DNA of 64,000 bases from Patescibacteria group bacterium (GTDB lineage Bacteria > Patescibacteriota > Minisyncoccia > Phycocordibacterales > UBA9973), in assembly GCA_040390725.1 (NCBI GenBank), contig JAZJXT010000005.1, forward strand, positions 13,301 to 77,300, in the 5' to 3' direction. The notes below the pieces were generated by a model. That model was not told the origin of the DNA, searched no databases, and saw only the letters and a program-made list of their open reading frames with translations. Below, piece after piece: positions 4,329 through 61,162 of the stretch. Position numbers and translations under genes: made by a program. Each line of letters begins with the position of its first letter. Positions within the stretch are counted from its first letter, which is position 1.

Positions 4329-4712
4329 AACCTCACCCCAGATTCAAAGTATCTCACCCTAAGATTCAAGGAACCTCACCCCATCCGCCAGCTGGCGGAC
4401 TCTCCTTATTAAGGAGAGGGGGAAAATACAAAATTCAAATCGGCATGACTATTTTTTATAACAAATCTAAAAATTTAACTAAAAGAATTTTATTGAGACA
4501 ATCTCAAACTTCTCAAGAAGTAATGCTTTGGGGAAAATTAAGAAATATAAAGAATATGACAAGCAAAGGTCTGATTATTTATCGGTATTTAATATCAAAG
4601 TAATTCGTTTTTGGAATAATGAAATAAATACCAATATAGAAGGTGTCATATTAAAAATTATTGATGAGTTGAATTCCCCCTCTCCTTAATAAGGAGAGGG
4701 TAGGGTGAGGTT
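4329..4712. mobile_element. MITE-like non-autonomous element: imperfect terminal inverted repeats flanking a decayed DUF559 endonuclease gene
   Basis: Left end: 2.5 tandem copies of cctcaccc(c)agattcaa(a)g (4331-4382), palindrome ccgccagctggcgg (4386-4399), palindrome tctccttattaaggagaggggg (4401-4422). Right end 4676-4712 ccccctctccttaataaggagagggtagggtgaggttc is the reverse complement of the left end minus the ccgccagctggcgg piece. Confidence 0.55.
4445..4700 (+). pseudogene. DUF559 (Vsr-like endonuclease domain) gene remnant, internally deleted and frameshifted
   Basis: Frame 1 from ATG 4445: MTIFYNKSKNLTKRILLRQSQTSQEVMLWGKLRNIKNMTSKGLIIYRYLISK* (DUF559 N-terminal pattern LRxxxTxxExxLWxxLRN). 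A second frame from ~4603 gives VIRFWNNEINTNIEGVILKIIDELNSPSP* (DUF559 C-terminal RFWNNEV..LEGVL). The ~60-aa core between them is missing. Confidence 0.55.
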
Positions 4713-5888: not shown

Positions 5889-5904
5889 GCTAATTTTTAA
5901 ATTT

Positions 5905-5936
5905 CTACGATAGTCGACATATGTTTGCTATCGTAG
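5905..5936 (+). repeat. 32-bp nested palindrome, copy 1 of 3: CTACGATAGTCGACATATGTTTGCTATCGTAG
   Basis: Perfect 9-bp outer arms ctacgatag/ctatcgtag with inner palindromes gtcgac and acatatgt. Near-identical copies at 50855-50886 (opposite orientation) and 51497-51526. Confidence 0.8.
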
Positions 5937-5948
5937 ATTATGGATAGT

Positions 5949-7841
5949 TTACTTTGCAAACTTAATTTTCTCTTCTTTTCCTAAAATAGGTTTTTGGGGT
6001 TGGAAGACAGAATTTAATTTTATTATATTTTTCTTTACGGACATTGTGCCAGCTTTGTAAAGTTTTATTTCTAGCAACATTCCTTGCATCGTGTTTTCCG
6101 AGAATTTTTGGTCAAAGATAAAGTTGCCTAATGAGTAGGCTATATAACTATTTTTATAAACTTCAAAATCTTCCACGACATGCGGATGCGCGCCGATGAC
6201 GAGTTTGGCACCGTCGTCTACGGCTTTATGCGCTAGGTATTCTTGGCGAGTATTATGTTTTGTTTGATATTCCTCACCGAAATGAAATGACACCACTAAA
6301 CTATCCACTTGTTTCGAAGCATTTTGAATTATTTTATCAAAATTCGGATTAGTGGTGAGTAGTAGTCCAGATTCTGTATCAGTAGGAGTCAACCATTCTG
6401 GGCCTTTATCAGAGAATGCCAGATAGCCTATTTTCATACCATTTTTTTCAATTATTTTAGGAATTTCTGCGTTATTTTCATTTGCTCCGCCTCCCGAATA
6501 AAGAATTTCGTTTTCTGTTAAGTGCGAAAGTGTGTCTTCGAAAGCTTCACGACCCCAGTCGCCGATATGATTGTTTGAAATAGAAAGTACATCTATGCCA
6601 GCACCCTTGAGTGCGGGTATAGTTTCCGGATCCATTCTGAAAGAATATAAATTGTGTTTATCTTCTCCTTGGTCTGACGCTGGGCCTTCTAAATTTGCAA
6701 AGACGATATCATTTTTATTAAGTTCACCCATGTTTTGGAAAAGAGCGGAATAGTCGCCGTTGAAATTCTTGCGAACGGAACTTTTTACTCCGCGGTCGAG
6801 CATGATGTCGCCCAAGAATGCTAAATTCACATAGTCAGGTTCTGCAAATTCAGGCATGCCTTCTTTGGTTTTTACCCAATTACTTTTTGCGTCTATTTCA
6901 CCACCGTAATAAATATTTTTCTTCACAAATTTTAAAATACTTTCCACGTCTTTTTTGCGGTCTGGTGTACGGAGGAGGACAATAGCTACATTTCTTTTCC
7001 CGGACTCAGAAAGAGGCAGGGAAAAATTTGAAATCACCGTTTGCTTAGCTTCGTCGGTGTATCCGCTCTTACCGCCCAGGTATCCATCATCACTTAGGAA
7101 TTGATTGGTGCTGTACCAGAAATGTTTTTTATTGCTGTAACTTTTATTTTGAGTTATTTTTAAAACATTAGGCGCGTTATTTTTTAAATATCCGGCGAGA
7201 GAAAATAGGTCGCGTGCGGTGGATTGATTGTTCGGCGAGAGTCCGCTCGGGTCTTCAAAGGACGTCGAAGGCATTGATAATCTTTGCGCTTCTTGATTCA
7301 TTTTTTGCAGGAAAGTTTCTCTATTAAAGTGTTCGGCTATTATTTCAGCGGCATCATTTGAAGATTCCAGTAGAAGAGGGTAGAGGATATCGCTTATCTT
7401 TATTTTTTCATTTAAATGAAAAGCGCCGTTTTGTCCGTATGTGGCAAGGGCTTTTTTGGAAACAACAGCCACATCATTGTCATCAGGCAGTTCTGTGGCG
7501 GTGAGAGCCGTCATAAGTTTTGAAACAGATGCGATAGGGTATTTTTGTTCTTCTTTTTTCTTTAAAATTATTTCACCGGTGTCCAAGTCACCCACTATGT
7601 ATGCATCAGCAGAAATCTTCGGCGCTATTTTTGGATCTTTTAGAAAATAAAAACTTGTCTGCTCAGGAGTTTTTGTTTCAGATATTGGTGCCGGTTGTGT
7701 TTTCGGGACTTCATTTTGGGTATTTCCTTCTTTTGATATTTTATAATATCCGATGGCTTGCGTTATGAAAAAAGCGGAGGCTAGTCCTACGGTTAAGGAT
7801 ATAATTACAAATAGAAATTTTTTTGCTGCTCGTTTAACCAT
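5949..7841 (-). CDS. membrane-anchored fusion of a serine-type D-Ala-D-Ala carboxypeptidase domain and a CapA/PgsA-like metallophosphatase domain
   Basis: N-terminal TM helix; PBP5-type motifs SVSKLMT (SxxK), ESSND (SxN), KSGYT (KTG). C-terminal half has CapA motifs (LAFLGDIMLDR, FANLEGP, SISNNHIGDWG, VIGAHPHVV). Confidence 0.75.
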   Translation of the reverse strand: MVKRAAKKFLFVIISLTVGLASAFFITQAIGYYKISKEGNTQNEVPKTQPAPISETKTPEQTSFYFLKDPKIAPKISADAYIVGDLDTGEIILKKKEEQKYPIASVSKLMTALTATELPDDNDVAVVSKKALATYGQNGAFHLNEKIKISDILYPLLLESSNDAAEIIAEHFNRETFLQKMNQEAQRLSMPSTSFEDPSGLSPNNQSTARDLFSLAGYLKNNAPNVLKITQNKSYSNKKHFWYSTNQFLSDDGYLGGKSGYTDEAKQTVISNFSLPLSESGKRNVAIVLLRTPDRKKDVESILKFVKKNIYYGGEIDAKSNWVKTKEGMPEFAEPDYVNLAFLGDIMLDRGVKSSVRKNFNGDYSALFQNMGELNKNDIVFANLEGPASDQGEDKHNLYSFRMDPETIPALKGAGIDVLSISNNHIGDWGREAFEDTLSHLTENEILYSGGGANENNAEIPKIIEKNGMKIGYLAFSDKGPEWLTPTDTESGLLLTTNPNFDKIIQNASKQVDSLVVSFHFGEEYQTKHNTRQEYLAHKAVDDGAKLVIGAHPHVVEDFEVYKNSYIAYSLGNFIFDQKFSENTMQGMLLEIKLYKAGTMSVKKNIIKLNSVFQPQKPILGKEEKIKFAK

Positions 7842-28733: not shown

Positions 28734-28887
28734 AGTTTAAAAAAATATTTTGTTTAATATCTTTTTTTATTTCCCAAAATCAAATTTGTGTGCTATTGTG
28801 TATTTACAACTTCATATATACCCCTAAGCGTAAAGCAAGGGGAATTTTAGGTTTTTAATGGAGGTGGTTTGTGTGTTGAGGCATTAA

Positions 28888-28980
28888 TTCTCCTCTTGAG
28901 GAGTACCCCGACAGCAGTCGGGGGGAGGTGGAGAATTTATCCACCCCGTCTCGCAAGCGAGCCACCCCTCAAGAGGGGAA
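28888..28980 (+). other. GC-rich four-helix structured element immediately upstream of uvrA (unknown RNA or repeat)
   Basis: Outer inverted repeat cctcttgagg (28891-28900) / cctcaagagg (28967-28976) encloses hairpins ccccgac-agca-gtcgggg, ggtgga-gaattta-tccacc and ctcg-caag-cgag. It is about 60% GC in a genome of roughly 33% GC. Confidence 0.4.
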
Positions 28981-28989
28981 TAAAATTTT

Positions 28990-31602
28990 ATGCAAAAAAA
29001 TAAACCAACAACTGAAGGTAGCATTATAGTCAAAGGCGCGCGGACGCATAATTTGAAAAATGTGACGGTGGAAATGCCTCGCGGGAAAATGATAGTTTTT
29101 ACCGGTCTTTCGGGGTCGGGGAAAAGCTCGCTGGCTTTTGATACTATTTTCGCCGAAGGGCAGAGGAGATATGTTGAATCTCTTTCTTCTTATGCGCGCC
29201 AATTTTTAAAACAAATGGCAAAGCCGGATGTGGATGAGATAGAAGGTTTGAGTCCCGCGATTTCTATCGACCAAAAATCCCGCTCGAATAATCCGCGTTC
29301 GACAGTGGCGACTATCACGGAAATTTATGATTATCTGCGTGTCCTTTATGCGCGCGTGGGGCGTCCGCATTGTTTAGTGTGCGGAGATGAAATAAAAAAA
29401 CTTTCCAATGAAGAAATTATAAAATTCGTGATGGACAAGGTGCAAGAGGTCGCACCTCCAAGAGGAGGAACGACCTCTAAAAATACAAGAAAAGTAATGG
29501 GCGTAGAATGGAACGAAACCCCGATACAAATTTTTGCGCCGGTAGTGCGAGGCAGAAAAGGGGAATATTATCAATTGCTTTATGACTTGCTTGGTAAAGG
29601 TTATGCCAAAGTCCGCGTGGATGGCGTGATGAAAATTTTGCGCGAACGCATTGATTTATCAAAAACAAAAAAGCATGACATTGATGTTTTGGTGGATGAA
29701 TTTTCCGCGCACGAATTCGCCGGTAAAGATATAAAAGATGTGGAATTACGATTAGCAGAATCAGTTGAGCGAGCATTATTAGAATCAGATGGTTTGGTAA
29801 AAATAATAATAAATAAAGAAGAAACTTTATTATCTGCAAAATTTTCTTGCCCGAAAGACGGTTTTTCTTTTCCGGAAATAGAACCACGACTTTTTTCTTT
29901 TAATTCTCCGCATGGAGCTTGTCCTGTTTGTCACGGCCTCGGCACCAAGCATATGTTTGGCGATGATGCTTGCGATGAATGCCAAGGAAAAAGATTGCGC
30001 CCGGAAGCATTGAAAGTATTTTTGTCAGATAAAGAAACCAGCATTGTGGATTTCACCGCAATGTCTATCGAAGACGCAGTAGCATTTTTTAATAAATTAA
30101 AATTAACGGCGCAAGAAAAAGAAATTTCCGCGGTATTATTACGCGAGATTTCTTCGCGTTTGGAATTTCTTTTAAATGTCGGTTTGGAATATTTATCGCT
30201 CGACAGGCGCGCGAATACTTTGTCCGGTGGGGAAGCACAAAGAATTCGCCTCGCTTCACAGCTCGGCTCCCGGCTCGTCGGTGCATTATATGTTTTGGAC
30301 GAGCCGACGATAGGCTTGCACCAAAGAGACAATGAAAAACTTATTAAAACGCTTACAGATTTGCGTGATTTAGGGAATACGATAATAGTCGTCGAGCATG
30401 ATGAAGACACTATTTATTCTTCGGATTATATTGTGGATATCGGTCCGAAAGCCGGCGTGCATGGCGGAGAAATTATAGTTGCGGATTATTTAGATAAACT
30501 TTTAACCGCGCCAAAAAATACTTCAAAGTCTCGCACCTTGGCATACTTGAGAGAAGAAACGAGAATTGAAATTCCAGAAAAAAGACGCGAGGCAGAAAAA
30601 GGCAGTATAAAAATAGTTGGTGGGAAAATTTTCAGTATTAAAAATTTGAATGCGGAAATTCCACTTGGCAGATTAGTTTCCATTACCGGTGTTTCTGGTT
30701 CAGGTAAGAGCTCTTTTATGTATGAGATTTTGCACAAGAATTTGCAAGCAAGATTCGAAAGGAAATATCGGAGCGCTCAAGTTTTTAATTGCTCATCTTT
30801 TTCAGGGAGCGAATATTTACAAAGAGCGGTGCTAATAGACCAAAGTCCGATAGGCCGGACACCTCGTTCGAATATAGCTACATATACCGGATCATTTACT
30901 TTCATTCGTGATTTATTCGCTGAGACGGAGGAAGCGCGTTTCCGTGGGTGGAAGTCCAATAGATTTTCTTTCAATGTCAAAGGCGGACGATGCGAAGCTT
31001 GTGAAGGCAATGGTGAGATAGCTGTGGAAATGCATTTCTTACCTACCGTGTATGTCACTTGCGATGTGTGCAATGGCAAGCGTTTCGATAAAGAAACTTT
31101 GAAAGTAAAATATAAAAAGAAAAATATTTATGAAGTTTTGCAAATGACTGTGGAGGAAGGTTTGAAATTTTTCGATGAAATTCCTGCTATTTCTGATAGA
31201 TTAAAAAGTTTAGCTGATGTTGGTTTAACTTATGTAAAATTGGGGCAAAGTGCTACTACACTTTCCGGCGGGGAAGCTCAACGTGTGAAAATATCCAGCG
31301 AGCTTTTCAGGCCGTATTTGGAAAAGACAATTTATTTACTCGACGAGCCGACTGTCGGGCTTCATTATGATGATGTGCAGAATTTGATAAATGTTTTGGA
31401 AAAATTGGTGCACAAAGGGCACAGTGTCGTAGTCATCGAACACAATATGGACCTCATAAAATGTTCTGACTACATCTTAGACTTTGGTCCCGAAGGAGGC
31501 GACAAGGGTGGAATGTTGATAGCCAAAGGCACACCGGAAGAAATAGCGAATCATCCGAAATCTCATACTGGAAAATATTTAAAGAAAGTGTTGAGGAAAT
31601 AA
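28990..31602 (+). CDS. uvrA: excinuclease ABC subunit A
   Basis: Two ABC cassettes (GLSGSGKSSLAFDTIFAEGQRRYVESLS; GVSGSGKSS), zinc-finger cysteines, and LSGGE signatures. Confidence 0.95.
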   Translation: MQKNKPTTEGSIIVKGARTHNLKNVTVEMPRGKMIVFTGLSGSGKSSLAFDTIFAEGQRRYVESLSSYARQFLKQMAKPDVDEIEGLSPAISIDQKSRSNNPRSTVATITEIYDYLRVLYARVGRPHCLVCGDEIKKLSNEEIIKFVMDKVQEVAPPRGGTTSKNTRKVMGVEWNETPIQIFAPVVRGRKGEYYQLLYDLLGKGYAKVRVDGVMKILRERIDLSKTKKHDIDVLVDEFSAHEFAGKDIKDVELRLAESVERALLESDGLVKIIINKEETLLSAKFSCPKDGFSFPEIEPRLFSFNSPHGACPVCHGLGTKHMFGDDACDECQGKRLRPEALKVFLSDKETSIVDFTAMSIEDAVAFFNKLKLTAQEKEISAVLLREISSRLEFLLNVGLEYLSLDRRANTLSGGEAQRIRLASQLGSRLVGALYVLDEPTIGLHQRDNEKLIKTLTDLRDLGNTIIVVEHDEDTIYSSDYIVDIGPKAGVHGGEIIVADYLDKLLTAPKNTSKSRTLAYLREETRIEIPEKRREAEKGSIKIVGGKIFSIKNLNAEIPLGRLVSITGVSGSGKSSFMYEILHKNLQARFERKYRSAQVFNCSSFSGSEYLQRAVLIDQSPIGRTPRSNIATYTGSFTFIRDLFAETEEARFRGWKSNRFSFNVKGGRCEACEGNGEIAVEMHFLPTVYVTCDVCNGKRFDKETLKVKYKKKNIYEVLQMTVEEGLKFFDEIPAISDRLKSLADVGLTYVKLGQSATTLSGGEAQRVKISSELFRPYLEKTIYLLDEPTVGLHYDDVQNLINVLEKLVHKGHSVVVIEHNMDLIKCSDYILDFGPEGGDKGGMLIAKGTPEEIANHPKSHTGKYLKKVLRK

Positions 31603-32075: not shown

Positions 32076-33347
32076 ATGCAAAGTCAAGCGTTAAAAAATT
32101 ATAAGTTGCCGGACAAACCGGGAGTTTATTTTTTTATGGGTTCAAAGCCACGAACAAAAACCTCACCCCCGACCCCTCTCCATTTTAAAGAAATGGAGAG
32201 GGGAGGAATGCCGAAGGCAGGAGGGGTGAGGGAAGAAATTCTCTATATCGGCAAAGCGACAAGTTTGAAAGACAGGGTAAAGAGTTACTTTGGTAAAGAT
32301 TTATTTAATACTCGTGGGCCGTTGATTGTGGATATGGTAACGAAAACCACAAGTTTAAAATGGCAGGAAACTGACTCAGTTTTGGAAGCGCTTATTTTGG
32401 AAGCGAATTTAATTAAAAAACATCAGCCATATTACAATACAAAAGAAAAAGATGATAAAAGTTTTAATTATGTTTGCATAACACGTGATAAAAAAATTAT
32501 GTTTGTGCGCGGAAAAGTACTAGATATAAAAAAATATAATTCTGTTTTCGGACCTTTTCCATCTGGTAGTCAACTTAAAGATGCTATGAAAATTGTGCGT
32601 CGAATTTTCCCATATATTGAAGAGAGAAGGGGTGCAAAAGGCAAAGAAGAATTTTATAAACAAATAAAGCTTTTCCCATTAGATTCAAAAGAAAATACAA
32701 ATAACATTAAAAACATAAAACTATTTTTTGAGGGCAAGAAACAAAAAGTAGTAAAGAACTTAGAAAAAGAAATGAAGATGCTTGCGCATGAGCATGAATT
32801 TGAACAGGCAAATGAAATAAAGAAACAGCTATTTGCATTAAAGCACATCAATGATGTTGCATTAATAAAAGGAGATTCTTTTGGAGGCTCAACCTCCAAA
32901 AATTTCAGAATTGAAGCTTATGATATAGCTCATATGTCAGGACAAAATATGGTGGGTGTGATGACGGTTTTGGAAGATGGCGAAGTAAATAAAAATGAAT
33001 ATAGAAAATTCAAGATAAAAAATTATGATAGTGCGAATGACACCGGAGCATTGTTGGAAGTTTTAGAAAGACGTTTTAATCATTCCGAGTGGCAATATCC
33101 GAAATTAATTGTGATAGACGGAGGCAAGGCACAGCTGAATGTAATTAAAAAATTCCAAGCTCGCGTCGGGTTCGCTATTCCGTCAGTGGCGGTAGTGAAA
33201 GATGAAAGGCATAAAGCTAAAGGCATTTTGGGTGACAAAGAAACTATAAAAAAGTTCGAAAAAAGCATTTTACTAGCAAATGCCGAAGCGCATAGGTTTG
33301 CTATCAAATATCACATAAAAACACGCAAAAATAGCTTTTTGGGGTAG
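32076..33347 (+). CDS. uvrC: excinuclease ABC subunit C, short form lacking the C-terminal (HhH)2 domain, with an in-frame palindromic-element insertion in the GIY-YIG domain
   Basis: GIY-YIG (PGVYFF...ILYIGKATSLKDRVKSYF), UVR motif (EFEQANEIKKQLFALKHI), endonuclease domain (RIEAYDIAHMSGQNMVGVM). Ends at 423 aa. Confidence 0.85.
   Translation: MQSQALKNYKLPDKPGVYFFMGSKPRTKTSPPTPLHFKEMERGGMPKAGGVREEILYIGKATSLKDRVKSYFGKDLFNTRGPLIVDMVTKTTSLKWQETDSVLEALILEANLIKKHQPYYNTKEKDDKSFNYVCITRDKKIMFVRGKVLDIKKYNSVFGPFPSGSQLKDAMKIVRRIFPYIEERRGAKGKEEFYKQIKLFPLDSKENTNNIKNIKLFFEGKKQKVVKNLEKEMKMLAHEHEFEQANEIKKQLFALKHINDVALIKGDSFGGSTSKNFRIEAYDIAHMSGQNMVGVMTVLEDGEVNKNEYRKFKIKNYDSANDTGALLEVLERRFNHSEWQYPKLIVIDGGKAQLNVIKKFQARVGFAIPSVAVVKDERHKAKGILGDKETIKKFEKSILLANAEAHRFAIKYHIKTRKNSFLG
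32161..32232 (+). repeat. 72-bp imperfect palindromic element (CCTCACCC...GGGTGAGG termini) inserted in frame inside uvrC
   Basis: cctcacccccgacccctctccattt | taaagaa | atggagaggggaggaatgccgaaggcaggaggggtgaggg. It encodes the extra peptide ~KPRTKTSPPTPLHFKEMERGGMPKAGGVRE between conserved GIY-YIG blocks and shares termini and the CTCTCC core with the element at 4329-4712. Confidence 0.7.
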
Positions 33348-35612: not shown

Positions 35613-35662
35613 TATAATTAAATTTACAACTTAATAAATATATTTAAATTGTTTTTATCTGT

Positions 35663-35765
35663 AGCGGGTGATCGCACTCACATAGGCACATATGTTGGAG
35701 GTTAGCCATCACCCGCTTCAAATGAAAGCAATTAACCCCGCCATTATTTTGGCGGGGTTTTGTTT
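35663..35765 (+). other. 10-bp perfect-stem hairpin with 35-nt loop followed by an intrinsic terminator (ddl 3' structure or small RNA)
   Basis: agcgggtgat (35663-35672) ... atcacccgct (35708-35717); then ccccgcc-attatttt-ggcgggg plus T-run (35735-35765). Confidence 0.45.
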
Positions 35766-49802: not shown

Positions 49803-50828
49803 ATGGCATTCATTGATGAAATAAAAATACATGCAGACGCAGGACGAGGTGGAGACGGCGTGGTGCGCTGGAGGCAAGAAAAATTTGTGCCAAAAGGTGG
49901 ACCTGCCGGAGGTGATGGCGGACGTGGCGGGAATTTCTATGTTGAAGCTGTGCGCGATGTGCACATACTTTCAAAGTACAAAGCAAAGAAAGATTTTGAA
50001 GCAGGGCGTGGTGAAGACGGAGGCAAGAAAAGTTTGACTGGAAAAAACGGTGAAGATTTTGTTTTGGAATTACCGCTCGGCTCTATCATTACGAATTTAA
50101 AAACGGATGAAAAATGGAGCCTGCTTGAAGAGGGAGAAAAAATAATGTTGCTCAAAGGTGGATACGGTGGGTATGGTAATGAGCATTTTAAAAGTTCTAG
50201 AAATACTACACCGGAAGAGAGGAATTTGGGTCAAGAAGGCGAAGAGGGGGATTTCCACGTTGAGCTCGAGCTTTTCGCGGATATGGGCCTCGTGGGGCTT
50301 CCAAATGCTGGTAAATCATCGCTTTTAAATGCTTTGACGAATGCAAATGCTAAAGTCGGGGACTATGCTTTTACAACCTTAGACCCGAATCTCGGGGATT
50401 TTTATGGCTATATCATTGCGGACATTCCGGGTATCATAGAAGGCGCATCTGAAGGCAAAGGCCTCGGTGTGAAATTCTTGCGCCACATCAAACGCACGAA
50501 AATGCTCGCACATTTAGTGTCGCTAGAAAATGAAAATCCATTAAAAACTTATAAGGAAGTCCGCAAGGAATTGGAAAAATACGACAAGAATTTAAAACTC
50601 GGCGCTGACGGATTAGCTTCAAAAGAAGAAATAATTATTCTGACGAAGACAGATGTAATAGACGACACAAGTAAAAATAAAACAAATAAAACAAAAATAA
50701 TAGATAAAATAAAAAAAGAATTTATAACAAAACTAAAAAACAAAAATGTGTACACATTATCCCTCTACGACGATAAGTCCGTAAAAGATTTCACAAAAGA
50801 GCTCACAAAGATTTTAAAGAAAAAATAA
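49803..50828 (+). CDS. obg: GTPase Obg/CgtA (no C-terminal TGS/OCT domain)
   Basis: Glycine-rich Obg fold (GGDGGRGGN); G domain DMGLVGLPNAGKSSLLNALT, DIPGIIEGA. Confidence 0.9.
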   Translation: MAFIDEIKIHADAGRGGDGVVRWRQEKFVPKGGPAGGDGGRGGNFYVEAVRDVHILSKYKAKKDFEAGRGEDGGKKSLTGKNGEDFVLELPLGSIITNLKTDEKWSLLEEGEKIMLLKGGYGGYGNEHFKSSRNTTPEERNLGQEGEEGDFHVELELFADMGLVGLPNAGKSSLLNALTNANAKVGDYAFTTLDPNLGDFYGYIIADIPGIIEGASEGKGLGVKFLRHIKRTKMLAHLVSLENENPLKTYKEVRKELEKYDKNLKLGADGLASKEEIIILTKTDVIDDTSKNKTNKTKIIDKIKKEFITKLKNKNVYTLSLYDDKSVKDFTKELTKILKKK

Positions 50829-50854
50829 GATTTAATAAAAAAATAAAAACTTGT

Positions 50855-50886
50855 CTACGACAATAAACATATGTCGACTATCGTAG
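50855..50886 (-). repeat. 32-bp nested palindrome, copy 2 (inverted orientation), overlapping the promoter of the PaaX-like gene
   Basis: ctacgacaataaacatatgtcgactatcgtag; reverse complement ctacgatagtcgacatatgtttattgtcgtag. TAGAAT -10 (50907-50912) ends 6 nt before ATG 50919. Confidence 0.8.
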
Positions 50887-50918
50887 ACATTGTAAATTTT
50901 TTAGGATAGAATAAAAAG

Positions 50919-51488: not shown

Positions 51489-51496
51489 TAAAGTTT

Positions 51497-51526
51497 ACGA
51501 TAGTCGACATATGTTTGTTATCGTAG
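51497..51526 (+). repeat. 32-bp nested palindrome, copy 3, upstream of the BNR-propeller gene
   Basis: (t)tacgatagtcgacatatgtttgttatcgtag, same orientation as copy 1. Confidence 0.8.
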
Positions 51527-51585
51527 AAAAGTGAGAAATACGATTTTAGCTATCTTTTTGTCCATTTTTGTGGTATGTTTGGTGT

Positions 51586-55238: not shown

Positions 55239-56954
55239 GTGAAAGAAGAAATTTTGAAATTTTTTAAAGGGGAAGTGGAAAATGATGATGAGACCCTTTC
55301 GAAGTATTCGCATGATGCGAGTATTTTTACCGTTCGACCGCAAGTAGTTTGTTTCCCGAAAGATTCAGAAGATGTGCAGAATTTAGTGAAATGGGTGGAT
55401 GAAAATACTGAAAAGTATAAGGGGCTTTCCATTACTGCACGATGCGCCGGTACGGACATGTCTGGGGGCTCTATAAATGAATCAATTATTTTGGATTTTA
55501 CAAGGCATATGAATCAATTAATTGCATGGGGCGAAAGTGCTATTACTGTGCAACCCGGTATGTTTTACAGAGATTTTGAAAAAATAACTTTGGAGAAAAA
55601 TTTAATTTTGCCATGCTATACTGCTTCGAAAAATATCAATGCAATGGGTGGTATGTATGGCAATAATTCCGCAGGTGAGAGGACTTTGAGTTATGGCAAG
55701 ACTGAGGATTATGTGATGGAAGCAAAAGTTGTATTTGCGGATGGAGTGGAAAGAATAGTAAAGCCCGTGCCTCTCGAAGATATTTCAAAACAAGAATATA
55801 TTTACAGAAAAGTTTATGATTTAATAAAAGAAAATGAAGAAGAAATAAAAAATGCAAAGCCGAATGTCCACAAAAATTCCGCGGGGTATTATTTGTGGAA
55901 TGTTATAAAAAGTCGTCCTGTAGAAAATTCCTCCGGCTTGACCCTTCCCGGATTATCGGGTGGGACCCACACCGTTCAGAATTCTCCACAGGGCGACTTT
56001 TTTGACTTGAATAGACTTCTCGTCGGTTCGCAAGGCACACTCGGTATAGCTACGGAAATAACTTTTAAATTAGTAAAACCGAAACCTTATACGAATTTGG
56101 TAGTGGTATTTTTGCGAGATATGAGTATCTTGCCGGATTTGGTAAACAAAATTTTGAAATTTAATCCTCAGACTATCGAGACCTATGATGACAAGACTTT
56201 TTTACTTGTCTTGAAATACATTTATAGTTTTATAAAATTATTAGGATTTAAAAATTTCTTCAAACTTATTTTTTCTTTCGGACCGGAAACGATGATGACT
56301 TTGCGACACGGTTTCCCTAGATTGATAATGCTTGTAGAATTTACCGGAGATACTGAAAATGAAACAAATAAAAAAACACAAGATGCTTTGGTTGAATTAA
56401 AAAAGATAAAAAAAATAGGTGTGCATTTAGCAAAAAATGAATTTGAGGCAAAGAAATATTGGACTATTCGCCGCGAAGCTTTTAATCTGATTCGTTATCA
56501 TTTGAAGAAACAAAAATCAGAACCTTTTGTGGATGATGTGATAGTGCGTCCGGAAAAACTACCGGAATTTTTCCCAGCAGTTTATAAAATTTTAAATGAA
56601 TATAAAGATAAAATGACTTTTGCTGTGGGCGGACACGCCGGCGATGGCAATATGCATATTTACACATTGCTCGATCCAAAAGAGCCCGCACTCAAAGACA
56701 TAGTGATGGATGTGTCTGAAAAAGTTTATGACCTCGTCGCGCGCCTTGGCGGATCAATCACAGCTGAACACAATGACGGCATTATTCGCACGCCATTTTT
56801 GGAAAAAATGTATAGTCCAAAAATTTTAGAATTATTTAAGGAAGTGAAAGAAATATTTGACCCGAAATATATTTTTAATCCTGGTAAAAAAGTCCCCATG
56901 CCCGGTGCTCAGATAGGCGGTAAAGAATACATCGCGGCTCACATTACCAAGTAA
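55239..56954 (+). CDS. FAD-binding oxidoreductase (FAD-linked oxidase, GlcD / D-lactate dehydrogenase family)
   Basis: PCMH-type FAD-binding N-terminal domain plus FAD-oxidase C-terminal domain (ITAEHNDGIIRTPF). Confidence 0.7.
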   Translation: MKEEILKFFKGEVENDDETLSKYSHDASIFTVRPQVVCFPKDSEDVQNLVKWVDENTEKYKGLSITARCAGTDMSGGSINESIILDFTRHMNQLIAWGESAITVQPGMFYRDFEKITLEKNLILPCYTASKNINAMGGMYGNNSAGERTLSYGKTEDYVMEAKVVFADGVERIVKPVPLEDISKQEYIYRKVYDLIKENEEEIKNAKPNVHKNSAGYYLWNVIKSRPVENSSGLTLPGLSGGTHTVQNSPQGDFFDLNRLLVGSQGTLGIATEITFKLVKPKPYTNLVVVFLRDMSILPDLVNKILKFNPQTIETYDDKTFLLVLKYIYSFIKLLGFKNFFKLIFSFGPETMMTLRHGFPRLIMLVEFTGDTENETNKKTQDALVELKKIKKIGVHLAKNEFEAKKYWTIRREAFNLIRYHLKKQKSEPFVDDVIVRPEKLPEFFPAVYKILNEYKDKMTFAVGGHAGDGNMHIYTLLDPKEPALKDIVMDVSEKVYDLVARLGGSITAEHNDGIIRTPFLEKMYSPKILELFKEVKEIFDPKYIFNPGKKVPMPGAQIGGKEYIAAHITK

Positions 56955-59858: not shown

Positions 59859-60080
59859 ATGCAAAAAGCAATACATCCAAAATACAGCGATAAAACAAAG
59901 GCGACCTGCGCTTGCGGGGCGGTCTTTGAAGTCGGCTCAACTATGCCTGAAGTAACAGTGGAAATCTGCAGTCAATGCCACCCTTTTTATACTGGTAATG
60001 AAAAAGTTCTAGATACTGCCGGACGAGTAAATCGCTTCAACAAGCGCCGAGCCGCAGCTCCTGTAAAAGCTAAGAAGTAA
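59859..60080 (+). CDS. rpmE: 50S ribosomal protein L31
   Basis: MQKAIHPKY...CACGAVF...[27 protein letters not shown]. Confidence 0.92.
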
Positions 60081-60085
60081 ACGAT

Positions 60086-60169
60086 TACCCTGTTGAAGAA
60101 TTTTTGCGCCTTCGCCCTCGGAGACATAGGACAGGGAACCCACGACGCTTTAAATTCTTCAACAGGGTA
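60086..60169 (+). other. 18-bp perfect inverted repeat with GC-rich 48-nt loop followed by a T-run (unusually large terminator or REP/MITE-like element)
   Basis: taccctgttgaagaattt (60086-60103) / aaattcttcaacagggta (60152-60169); loop ttgcgccttcgccctcggagacataggacagggaacccacgacgcttt; then ttttcgtg. Confidence 0.6.
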
Positions 60170-60190
60170 TTTTCGTGATTAAAAATATTT

Positions 60191-61162
60191 ATGAACTTAG
60201 ATCTCGAAGAATTAAAAAAAAATCACAAGACTAATTATTTGGCGGGTGTTTTAGAGCGGTTGAATAGAGAAGAATCAGAAGTACGGGATATGCTGGATAG
60301 TGATGCATCTTTACATGAAATGGCGTCCGCAGAATTGAAAACTATTCAAGAACAAAAAGATACGACAGAAAAACAAATTCAAGATATTTTAGATAAAGAA
60401 AAAGAGGAAGAAGAAATAACAAATGAAATAGTTTTGGAAGTGCGAGCAGGTGCCGGTGGAGATGAAGCGTCTCTTTTTGCGTGGAGGCTCGCGCATATGT
60501 ATGAGAAATTTGCCGAGGCAAAAGGCTGGCAATGGCATACGAATTATGAATCCAAAAGTGATGTAGATGGTTACAAAGAAGCGAGCTTTGAAATAAAAGG
60601 AAAAGGCGTGTACGATATGTTGCGTTATGAGACTGGCGTGCACAGAGTGCAGAGAATTCCTTCTACGGAAAAAAACGGACGAGTGCATACATCTACGGCG
60701 TCAGTAGCAGTTTTACCGATTCGCAAAAAAGTTAATTTTGAAATCAATCCAGCTGACCTCGAAATGGAATATTCTCGTTCCGGTGGAAAAGGCGGGCAGA
60801 ATGTGAATAAAGTTGAAACTGCTGTGCGTTTGATTCACAAGCCTACAGGCCTCGATGTGCGTTCTACAAATGAACGTAGTCAGCAAGCGAATCGTGAGAG
60901 AGCATTATCTATTTTGACCGCAAAAATTCAGCAATTAAAAGAAGAAGAAGAAGCGAAAAAATATTCTGGTGAGCGCAAAGCGCAAATAGGCACAGGGGAC
61001 AGAAGTGAGAAAATCCGCACTTATAATTTTCCTCAAGACCGCATCACCGACCATCGTATCAAAAAATCTTGGCATAACTTGCCGAAAATAATGGAAGGTG
61101 AAATAGCAGAAATAATCGAAGCCATAAACTCCGGCGAGACAGGGGACGAAGAAGAGGAATAA
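60191..61162 (+). CDS. prfA: peptide chain release factor 1
   Basis: GGQ motif ([11 protein letters not shown]); RF1-type tripeptide PST ([14 protein letters not shown]). Confidence 0.92.

Follow-up and report, generated by a model that had tools for sequence, protein, structure and literature searches.

A GC-rich four-helix element before uvrA in a Patescibacteria genome, read as one copy of a dispersed palindromic repeat family that appears to be partnered with a DUF559 nuclease

Fungal mitochondria contain GC-rich palindromic clusters and double-hairpin elements, and coding palindromes are found in the mitochondria of Nematomorpha. In bacteria, REPINs are doublets of REP sequences that form hairpins and that occur, together with RAYT genes, in Pseudomonas and Escherichia coli (PMC3337134, PMC3116915). 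The genome of Rickettsia, which is small and AT-rich, contains palindromic elements (Rickettsia palindromic elements, RPEs) inserted in frame in housekeeping genes that are unrelated to one another (Ogata et al., 2000, as reported in the available part of PMC10969869). Finally, the bacterial MITEs include the Correia elements, ERIC, RUP and BOX (available part of PMC10969869; PMC2229807).

The element described here is located in a 64-kb stretch of DNA, analysed as a whole and referred to below as the window, where it immediately precedes uvrA, which is followed in turn by uvrC. Judging from its UvrA relatives, this DNA belongs to the Patescibacteria, class Paceibacteria (Nomurabacteria-like); no record of the identical UvrA protein was found. 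With a probability of roughly 0.85, the element belongs to a dispersed family of non-autonomous palindromic repeats of Paceibacteria, and this copy landed between the leader motif of uvrA and its start codon. An earlier note on the same DNA, made from the sequence alone, had described an outer stem enclosing three hairpins directly upstream of uvrA, and folding bore this out: the RNA fold of 28885-28985 consists of a 15-bp outer stem with two extra pairs around three hairpins, and its MFE is -56.4 kcal/mol, compared with -29.8 +/- 3.5 in 200 dinucleotide shuffles, none of which equalled it (z -7.7). The opposite strand folds equally well (MFE -56.6, z -6.5). The note was right in describing a GC-rich segment in AT-rich DNA (GC is 0.58 for 28888-28983), but the background across the whole window is 37% rather than about 33%; similarly, the element does stand immediately upstream of uvrA, but its exact extent, from a terminal ATT to a terminal AAT, leaves a gap of 8 nt before the ATG, and not of 10 nt. 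The features of the region are collected in Table 1.

Table 1. Features of the uvrA leader region and parts of the four-helix element (positions in the window).
Feature	Position	Strand	Basis
Putative extended -10, TGcTATTGT	28791-28799	+	Position-homologous to TGnTATAAT in L001-L003; absent from the consensus scan list
Conserved uvrA leader motif with small hairpin (28820-28843), outside the repeat	28808-28853	+	nhmmer profile
Four-helix repeat, complete (inverted doublet of a ~45-nt unit)	28887-28981	+	Fold, R1 score, alignment
Left half L: ATTCTCCTCTTGAGGAGTA / P2 hairpin / GGAGGTGGA	28887-28932	+	Sequence
P2 hairpin	28906-28923	+	Fold
P3 hairpin	28924-28947	+	Fold
P3 loop GAATTTA, variable spacer joining the half-units	28933-28939	+	Copy comparison
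Right half R (basic repeat unit): TCCACCCC / G / P4 hairpin / CCACCCCTCAAGAGGGGAAT	28940-28981	+	
P4 hairpin	28950-28961	+	Fold
uvrA	28990-31602	+	Pfam UvrA_inter (PF17760) and ABC_tran; 89% identity to L001, L002

The two halves of the element are versions of the same unit, the L half being a reverse complement of the R half that has diverged by a few fixed transitions, with the mismatches T.G and A.C fixed between one half and the other. The element ends in 15-bp terminal inverted repeats (ATTCTCCTCTTGAGG / CCTCAAGAGGGGAAT). This composition shows that P1 and P3 arise from the pairing of the two R units with each other, and that P2 and P4 are the small hairpins belonging to each unit. The segment abutting the element on its 5' side (28861-28886, GGAGGTGG....TTGAGGCATTA) resembles fragments of the element, namely the 5' strand of P3 and an arm of P1, and could be what is left of another copy that has decayed. 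The TAA of a short ORF of 9 codons (ATG at 28858) overlaps the 5' end of the element.

The statement that the element is neither a tRNA nor a tmRNA agrees with ARAGORN, which predicted no genes in the whole window, and the failure to match known RNA families was confirmed by a scan with Rfam 15, which gave no hit at gathering score in the 64 kb. When Rfam was scanned permissively, the best sub-threshold match was to a microRNA model, with 27 bits where 94 are required; we rejected it as a chance similarity to a long hairpin.

A covariance model of the element (R1) gave a score of 93 bits to the copy before uvrA, which was its sole strong match in the window. Elsewhere, the element could be aligned with 115 further distinct copies among the matches listed. 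Metagenome contigs from groundwater, aquifer and peat samples contain at least 120 further stretches carrying both element ends, at unrelated sites, and the metagenome matches listed, together with the genome loci, amount to at least 124 unique copies, a count which includes many orthologous sites and is therefore not one of independent events. The copies can be as dense as three per 2.5 kb, and at least four are present on one 191-kb contig. Because the metagenome copies were found by a pattern of both element ends, P1 is fixed in them by the search; however, P1 is identical also in the two copies found by BLAST (L042 and L054), in which the pattern was not involved. The flanks of the copies are unrelated to each other except for an AT-rich preference, TTWA-ATT...AAT-WW, and among the listed copies the terminal ATT is invariant in 114-116 of 116 and the AAT in 107-116 of 116. 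No copies were found in the viral contigs scanned. From the distribution of its copies we infer that the repeat family is mobile.

The earlier note had left the nature of the element between a cis-regulatory RNA, an sRNA and a GC-rich palindromic repeat. The presence of many near-identical copies at unrelated loci decides for the third option, and it speaks against the other two, as does the lack of the element before uvrA in the nearest relatives read.

The genes that recur next to the copies are housekeeping genes, with the addition of a small ORF which encodes a DUF559 protein (PF04480, E 1.8e-22 to 4e-32). The closest solved chain to the R-type DUF559 protein is 3HRL, annotated as an 'endonuclease-like protein'. 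The unit R was found both alone and in perfect rc(R)-spacer-R pairs (inverted pairs are present in L121 and L159), and in L192, as well as at three further independent places (L201, L202/203 and L204/205), the DUF559 ORF is preceded by R in the sense orientation and followed by rc(R). The units reach into the gene itself: in L192, the first codons of the DUF559 gene are the R unit and the stop codon lies within rc(R). In L192 and L201, moreover, a complete antisense four-helix copy adjoins the stop codon of the gene.

This arrangement recurs in nearly all the homologues considered. Among the best 120 of 617 homologues of the R-type DUF559 protein, all of which come from Paceibacteria-type sources, the N-terminal peptide encoded by R (mostly ..STPSR..HPSRGE) is present in 100, the C-terminus FPS followed by the stop codon, encoded by rc(R) (TTCCCCTCTTGA), in 101, and at least one R-encoded terminus in 119. 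In contrast, none of 120 members of a second DUF559 subfamily shows the R signatures. The closest members of this subfamily end in PNVGGGQVGV, a tail encoded by another GC-rich repeat, which is present also upstream of its DUF559 gene in inverted orientation; the same tail is found in 0 of 120 proteins of the R-type subfamily. Further DUF559 subfamilies are accompanied by repeats of other kinds. Only one R-type DUF559 gene was seen in the element-bearing loci, which amount to about 0.83 Mb.

On the basis of this association, the repeat family appears to be partnered with a DUF559 (Vsr-like) nuclease. A point against it is the geometry: the AAT/ATT ends of the units face the DUF559 gene on both sides, and the gene is not inside a doublet. 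In the four-helix doublet these ends lie outermost, so that the arrangement is not that of a simple transposon with its MITE. We know of no transposition activity for DUF559, and our literature search found no paper linking DUF559 to repeats.

The R-bracketed DUF559 genes of L201, L202/L203 and L204/L205 are located within type IV pilus clusters, at two different positions: in two lineages the gene lies between pilM-like and pilN/O-like genes, and in another it follows the gene for a pilB-like ATPase. The window contains a decayed DUF559 gene of its own (4445-4707), bracketed by an inverted repeat, CTCTCCTTATTAAGGAGAGGGGGAA, which is perfect over 25 nt (4400-4424 / 4674-4698). This remnant and its intact relatives of the P0243 type have the CTCTCCTTAATAAGGAGAG palindrome in common, and the C-terminal peptide of the P0243 type is encoded by it. 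The segment 4329-4385 is composed of AACCTCACCCC-type repeats preceding the decayed gene, and the region as a whole (4329-4707) corresponds to the 4329 element of the earlier note; its palindrome and its repeat also adjoin four-helix copies in three metagenome loci (L138, L167 and L102).

Four rival explanations have to be weighed against a dispersed repeat with a DUF559 partner. The one that survives best considers the element a classical MITE, that is an internally deleted IS with an ordinary DDE or HUH transposase, and DUF559 a mere frequent neighbour or target. A length of about 95 bp, 15-bp terminal inverted repeats, AT-rich flanks and a large number of copies would all be expected of a MITE. 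However, no clear target-site duplication could be detected, and none longer than about 3 nt: the longest flanking direct repeats are the same as in the shuffled control, and the identity of the 1-3 nt adjacent to the copies is slightly above expectation (36 vs 24 expected at 2 nt). Likewise, the 955 ORFs near the copies include no recurring transposase-like cluster, and the only gene with such ends is that for DUF559, whose almost universal and subfamily-specific flanking is unlike what would be seen in a chance neighbour. Taken together, we regard the classical MITE as unlikely.

A second possibility is a functional RNA present in many copies, either a family of sRNAs (tRNA-like or with a four-way junction) or a module for the stabilisation or processing of mRNA, which would be under selection at the RNA level. 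The conservation of the element seems at first sight to agree with it, because the sequence of P1 and P3 is strongly conserved, being nearly invariant across copies (with P1 fixed as explained above), and the variation of P2 and P4 preserves the structure. P2 occurs in 40 sequence or length variants and P4 in 45, nearly all of which pair as perfect hairpins, and the loop of P3 in 77 different sequences of 2-14 nt among 113 parsed copies. Covariation was evaluated on a structure set by hand, RNAalifold on the MAFFT alignment having mis-paired P3 with the second CCACC copy where the loops were misaligned. With this fixed-column structure, 97.2% of the cells are paired, and double-sided changes amount to 51, compared with 10.5 +/- 2.5 in shuffles (0/500); one pair of P4 alone is UA in 76 cases, GC in 22, CG in 10 and AU in 2, which is a compensatory change. 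Covariation had been proposed in the earlier note as a check on a structural RNA, and compensatory change is indeed present, but it is the hairpin-keeping variation to be seen within a family of repeats, and gives no indication of strand. When G-U and A-C counts were compared, no preference was seen (16 vs 11), so that the covariation indicates a conserved fold and is silent on whether the fold is kept at the level of RNA or of DNA, and both strands fold equally. For the same reasons, it provides no argument for a uvrA riboswitch.

The orientation of the copies is also in favour of a functional RNA. Among the listed copies, the ratio of sense to antisense with respect to transcription is 36:7 in genes and 22:5 between co-directional genes, a bias that could derive from a constraint at the RNA level; local GC skew around the copies, used to check for an orientation linked to replication, follows the coding strand. 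The listed copies are concentrated at stop codons and at a distance of 8-12 nt ahead of start codons, and 20 of them start 0-4 nt past the stop codon of the upstream gene or overlap it, which is where a 3' stabiliser would sit. Nevertheless, such positions are to be expected anyway, since the intergenic regions are very short and the promoters abut the ATG, and no consistent promoter or terminator was found around the copies. Moreover, copies within ORFs keep the reading frame, i.e. they are read as codons and are not removed, and the occurrence of half-units and of other arrangements of the unit is better accounted for by DNA repeats. A functional RNA is, in our opinion, quite improbable.

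Far more doubtful is the explanation suggested by the position of the element, namely a cis-regulatory RNA specific to uvrA (a riboswitch, an attenuator or a translational operator) which hides or exposes the ribosome-binding region. Its distance of 8 nt from the ATG, its sense orientation within the predicted 5' UTR, its extreme stability and the compensatory variation in its helices would all be consistent with such a role. However, a comparison with 80 related uvrA loci (648 kb; best UvrA identity 89%, in L001 and L002) gave a different picture. The leaders of L001-L004, read directly, lack the four-helix element and keep the extended -10 promoter and the small hairpin, and the covariance model detected no copy upstream of uvrA in any of the 80 loci. 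The only two full copies in these 648 kb (L042 and L054) are both within the frame of uvrB, between VRPV and PGQIQDF, where a third, decayed copy is present in L019; their ends and their P1 and P3 are 100% identical to those of the window copy, although protein identity is no more than about 72% for UvrA and UvrB. Besides uvrB, the same sequence occupies rsmA, infB and further genes in frame, and it is present at over 100 sites elsewhere; it matches no Rfam family.

The GAGGGG of the 3' arm was considered as a possible sequestered Shine-Dalgarno sequence and rejected, because Shine-Dalgarno sequences are scarcely used in this genome. An SD-like 4-mer is present in the start regions of only 4 of the 39 long ORFs of the window (33 of these 39 genes are on the + strand), and in many genes a TATAAT-like box ends just 6-8 nt ahead of the ATG, so that most messages of the window appear to be leaderless and devoid of a Shine-Dalgarno sequence.

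The distribution of the copies therefore refutes a conserved regulator of uvrA, although an accidental, lineage-specific effect on uvrA translation is possible. The element is inserted selfish DNA and not a uvrA switch; given its distribution, any influence that it may have on the expression of uvrA would be incidental, and due to the addition of a very stable structure to the leader.

At this locus a false lead is thus removed, and the conserved signal of the uvrA leader turns out to be a small motif upstream of the repeat. The smaller hairpin that had been noticed earlier at some distance upstream does exist, and is part of this motif, which is specific to uvrA. The motif (46 nt) was detected by nhmmer in 48 of the 80 uvrA loci, always on the coding strand and upstream of uvrA, at 1-195 nt from its start (mostly 1-90 nt, with one match at 195 nt); outside uvrA leaders, there was a single weak match (E 0.4) in 1.47 Mb. 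In the window, 137 nt separate the motif from the ATG, since the repeat lies between them together with some 30 nt next to it. Its consensus, obtained from an alignment of 41 loci, is TAAATATAGATACAC-ACCCCC-TAnGAACAnGGC-GGGGTGT-nnTTGYGTTRTAT, and it comes after a TGnTATAAT promoter; the core of the stem is invariant and the outer pairs covary weakly. The motif is a candidate uvrA-specific regulator, which might act either as an RNA hairpin or as a DNA operator. A conserved uvrA leader is all the more worthy of attention because most genes here appear to be leaderless.

Other palindromes are present in the window. At 60075-60180, a long intergenic palindrome (MFE -37.7, z -4.6) lies upstream of the ORF at 60191, and at 35640-35765 a long palindrome is directly followed by a terminator-like GC hairpin (MFE -57.2, z -7.9). 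An AT-richer palindromic repeat, TCTACGATAGTCGACATATGTTTGCTATCGTAGA, forms a separate family and occurs in three copies, in both orientations (5892-5974, 50817-50899 and 51490-51540).

About a third of the listed copies (43 of 124) are located within long ORFs that read through them. In 36 of these 43, the copy has one and the same orientation and frame, and is translated into a peptide of about 31 residues, NSPLEEYPLGGGG..STPSRKRATPQEGN, which is hydrophilic and probably disordered; the antisense in-frame copies give an unrelated peptide. The length of the core is 2 mod 3 in 30 of the 36 genic sense copies and in 28 of 81 non-genic ones (Fisher p = 9e-7), a bias towards preserving the frame which implies that the element is read as codons, and is neither spliced nor bypassed. 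The host proteins fall into 21 clusters, although some of the singletons look like spurious ORFs. According to Pfam, they include RsmA/KsgA, PheT, PurD, IF-2, Tgt, a SAM methyltransferase and RNase R (the last with an antisense copy); UvrB was recognized by its conserved motifs and by synteny beside uvrA, and a UvrD/PcrA-like helicase by its motifs. The host genes of in-frame copies thus include uvrB, rsmA, infB, pheT, purD and tgt. One orthologous protein site is occupied by a sense copy in four genomes and by an antisense copy in a fifth, and such an occupation in both orientations requires independent insertions. The uvrB site is empty (28-residue form) in 29 of 59 parsed loci. Searches with the element-encoded peptide, a very short query, returned one match, and 13 weak matches among 1.84 billion representatives.

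It is hardly credible that this peptide is itself a selected protein module, with the DNA palindrome as its by-product, because its common frame in 36 of 43 genic copies and its hydrophilic, probably disordered character have to be set against the two thirds of copies that are non-coding and unconstrained in length, the free variation of the middle of the peptide while base pairing is kept, the unrelated peptide encoded by antisense copies, the identity (100%) of P1/P3 nucleotides between genomes whose flanking proteins are about 72% identical, and the lack of any synonymous variation within P1/P3 of the coding copies (P1 being fixed by the pattern, but identical in L042/L054 too).

The surface loop of UvrB that hosts the element (VRPVS to YPGQIQDF) contains, judging from shared peptide motifs, at least four other families of in-frame palindromes. 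These other inserts, found in L007, L008, L010, L014, L015, L020, L025, L029, L043, L044 and L063, add 27-40 residues, with MFE down to -60 kcal/mol and z down to -9.8; within the ARSS..RPS family, the sequence of the long outer arms changes from genome to genome, yet the arms stay complementary. In the window, a palindrome of about 100 nt belonging to another family (55900-56010; MFE -45.1, z -6.1) is located in the ORF 55239-56954 (+; 571 aa), and looks like a further coding palindrome of this genome. Near the N-terminus of uvrC (32076-33347), a purine-rich GC segment at 32192-32237, GGAGAGGGGAGGAATGCCGAAGGCAGGAGGGGTGAGGG, includes the CCTCACCCC repeat in reverse complement (GGGGTGAGG), and may be another repeat-derived insert in frame.

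If the element is a copy of a dispersed repeat, the bracketed gene offers a conceivable means for its spread. The DUF559 nuclease (Vsr-like, PD-(D/E)XK) might mobilize the repeat family in trans, or else keep its copies homogeneous. The target of the enzyme could be folded DNA, or the 14-bp near-palindrome CCCCTC-WW-GAGGGG, the candidate duplex target of the R-type DUF559 protein being CCCCTCAAGAGGGG; the enzyme might recognize the CCCCTC-WW-GAGGGG site, or else the T.G mismatch that is conserved in P1. The logic would be that of REPIN doublets and their RAYT gene with a different enzyme, and the repeats would be spread in this way even into the surface loops of essential proteins.

More generally, these repeats and their relatives could be the dispersed half of a REPIN-RAYT-like partnership of Patescibacteria, in which DUF559 recognizes folded or palindromic DNA and copies or maintains it, each subfamily acting on its own repeat family. 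This proposal is tentative, and we would give it somewhat less than an even chance. If it holds true, it would provide a function for DUF559 and establish nuclease-driven miniature mobile DNA as a new class. In any case, the near-universal and subfamily-specific bracketing of DUF559 genes is a testable clue both to what moves the repeats and to what DUF559, a widespread domain, does.

The streamlined genomes of Patescibacteria carry families of GC-rich folding repeats which invade housekeeping proteins in frame, and our literature search found no description of such repeats in Patescibacteria. From a practical point of view, these repeats inflate or distort predicted proteins in the annotation of MAGs, and can be mistaken for riboswitch-like RNAs.

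Compared with the systems described at the beginning, the element resembles MITEs in being short, non-autonomous, bounded by terminal inverted repeats, present in many copies, and able to sit in leaders, where it may alter the expression of neighbouring genes. It differs from them in that no matching IS or transposase was found with it, nor any clear target-site duplication, and in that its internal structure is kept by compensatory change, a requirement that ordinary MITEs do not have.

With the mitochondrial palindromes it shares the character of a GC-rich folding element of compact, AT-rich genomes, some of which are in coding sequence (cf. PMC6649704). Those palindromes, however, are organellar and unrelated in sequence, and some of them are bypassed or edited, and not translated. 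We know of no nuclease partner of the DUF559 kind for them.

The likeness to RPEs is closer, since these too are palindromic repeats that are found in frame in unrelated housekeeping genes, where they encode a conserved peptide, and also in non-coding DNA (available part of PMC10969869). The element described here is GC-rich, measures 95 bp against about 150 bp, and belongs to a different host phylum, so that a relationship in sequence is not to be expected; in addition, it has a candidate partner gene, while that part of PMC10969869 names no such gene for the RPEs.

As to architecture, REPINs are likewise inverted doublets, about 90 nt long, of short units each containing a small imperfect palindrome; their spacer and inner hairpins vary with pairing kept, singlets and other arrangements occur, and the units also stand, inverted relative to each other, on either side of the small gene associated with them (PMC3337134). 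The correspondence of one gene subfamily to one repeat family is also common to the two systems, cross-signatures being 0/120 both ways here. In contrast, the partner here is a DUF559 PD-(D/E)XK nuclease, whereas RAYT is an HUH/Y1 (IS200-like) tyrosine transposase; REPINs are extragenic, whereas 43 of the 124 listed copies lie in ORFs; the host clade is Patescibacteria; and the terminal GTAG or CGTC tag of REP sequences, as given in the available part of PMC3733652, is absent. We therefore class the element as working like a REPIN and behaving like an RPE, and as belonging to neither family.
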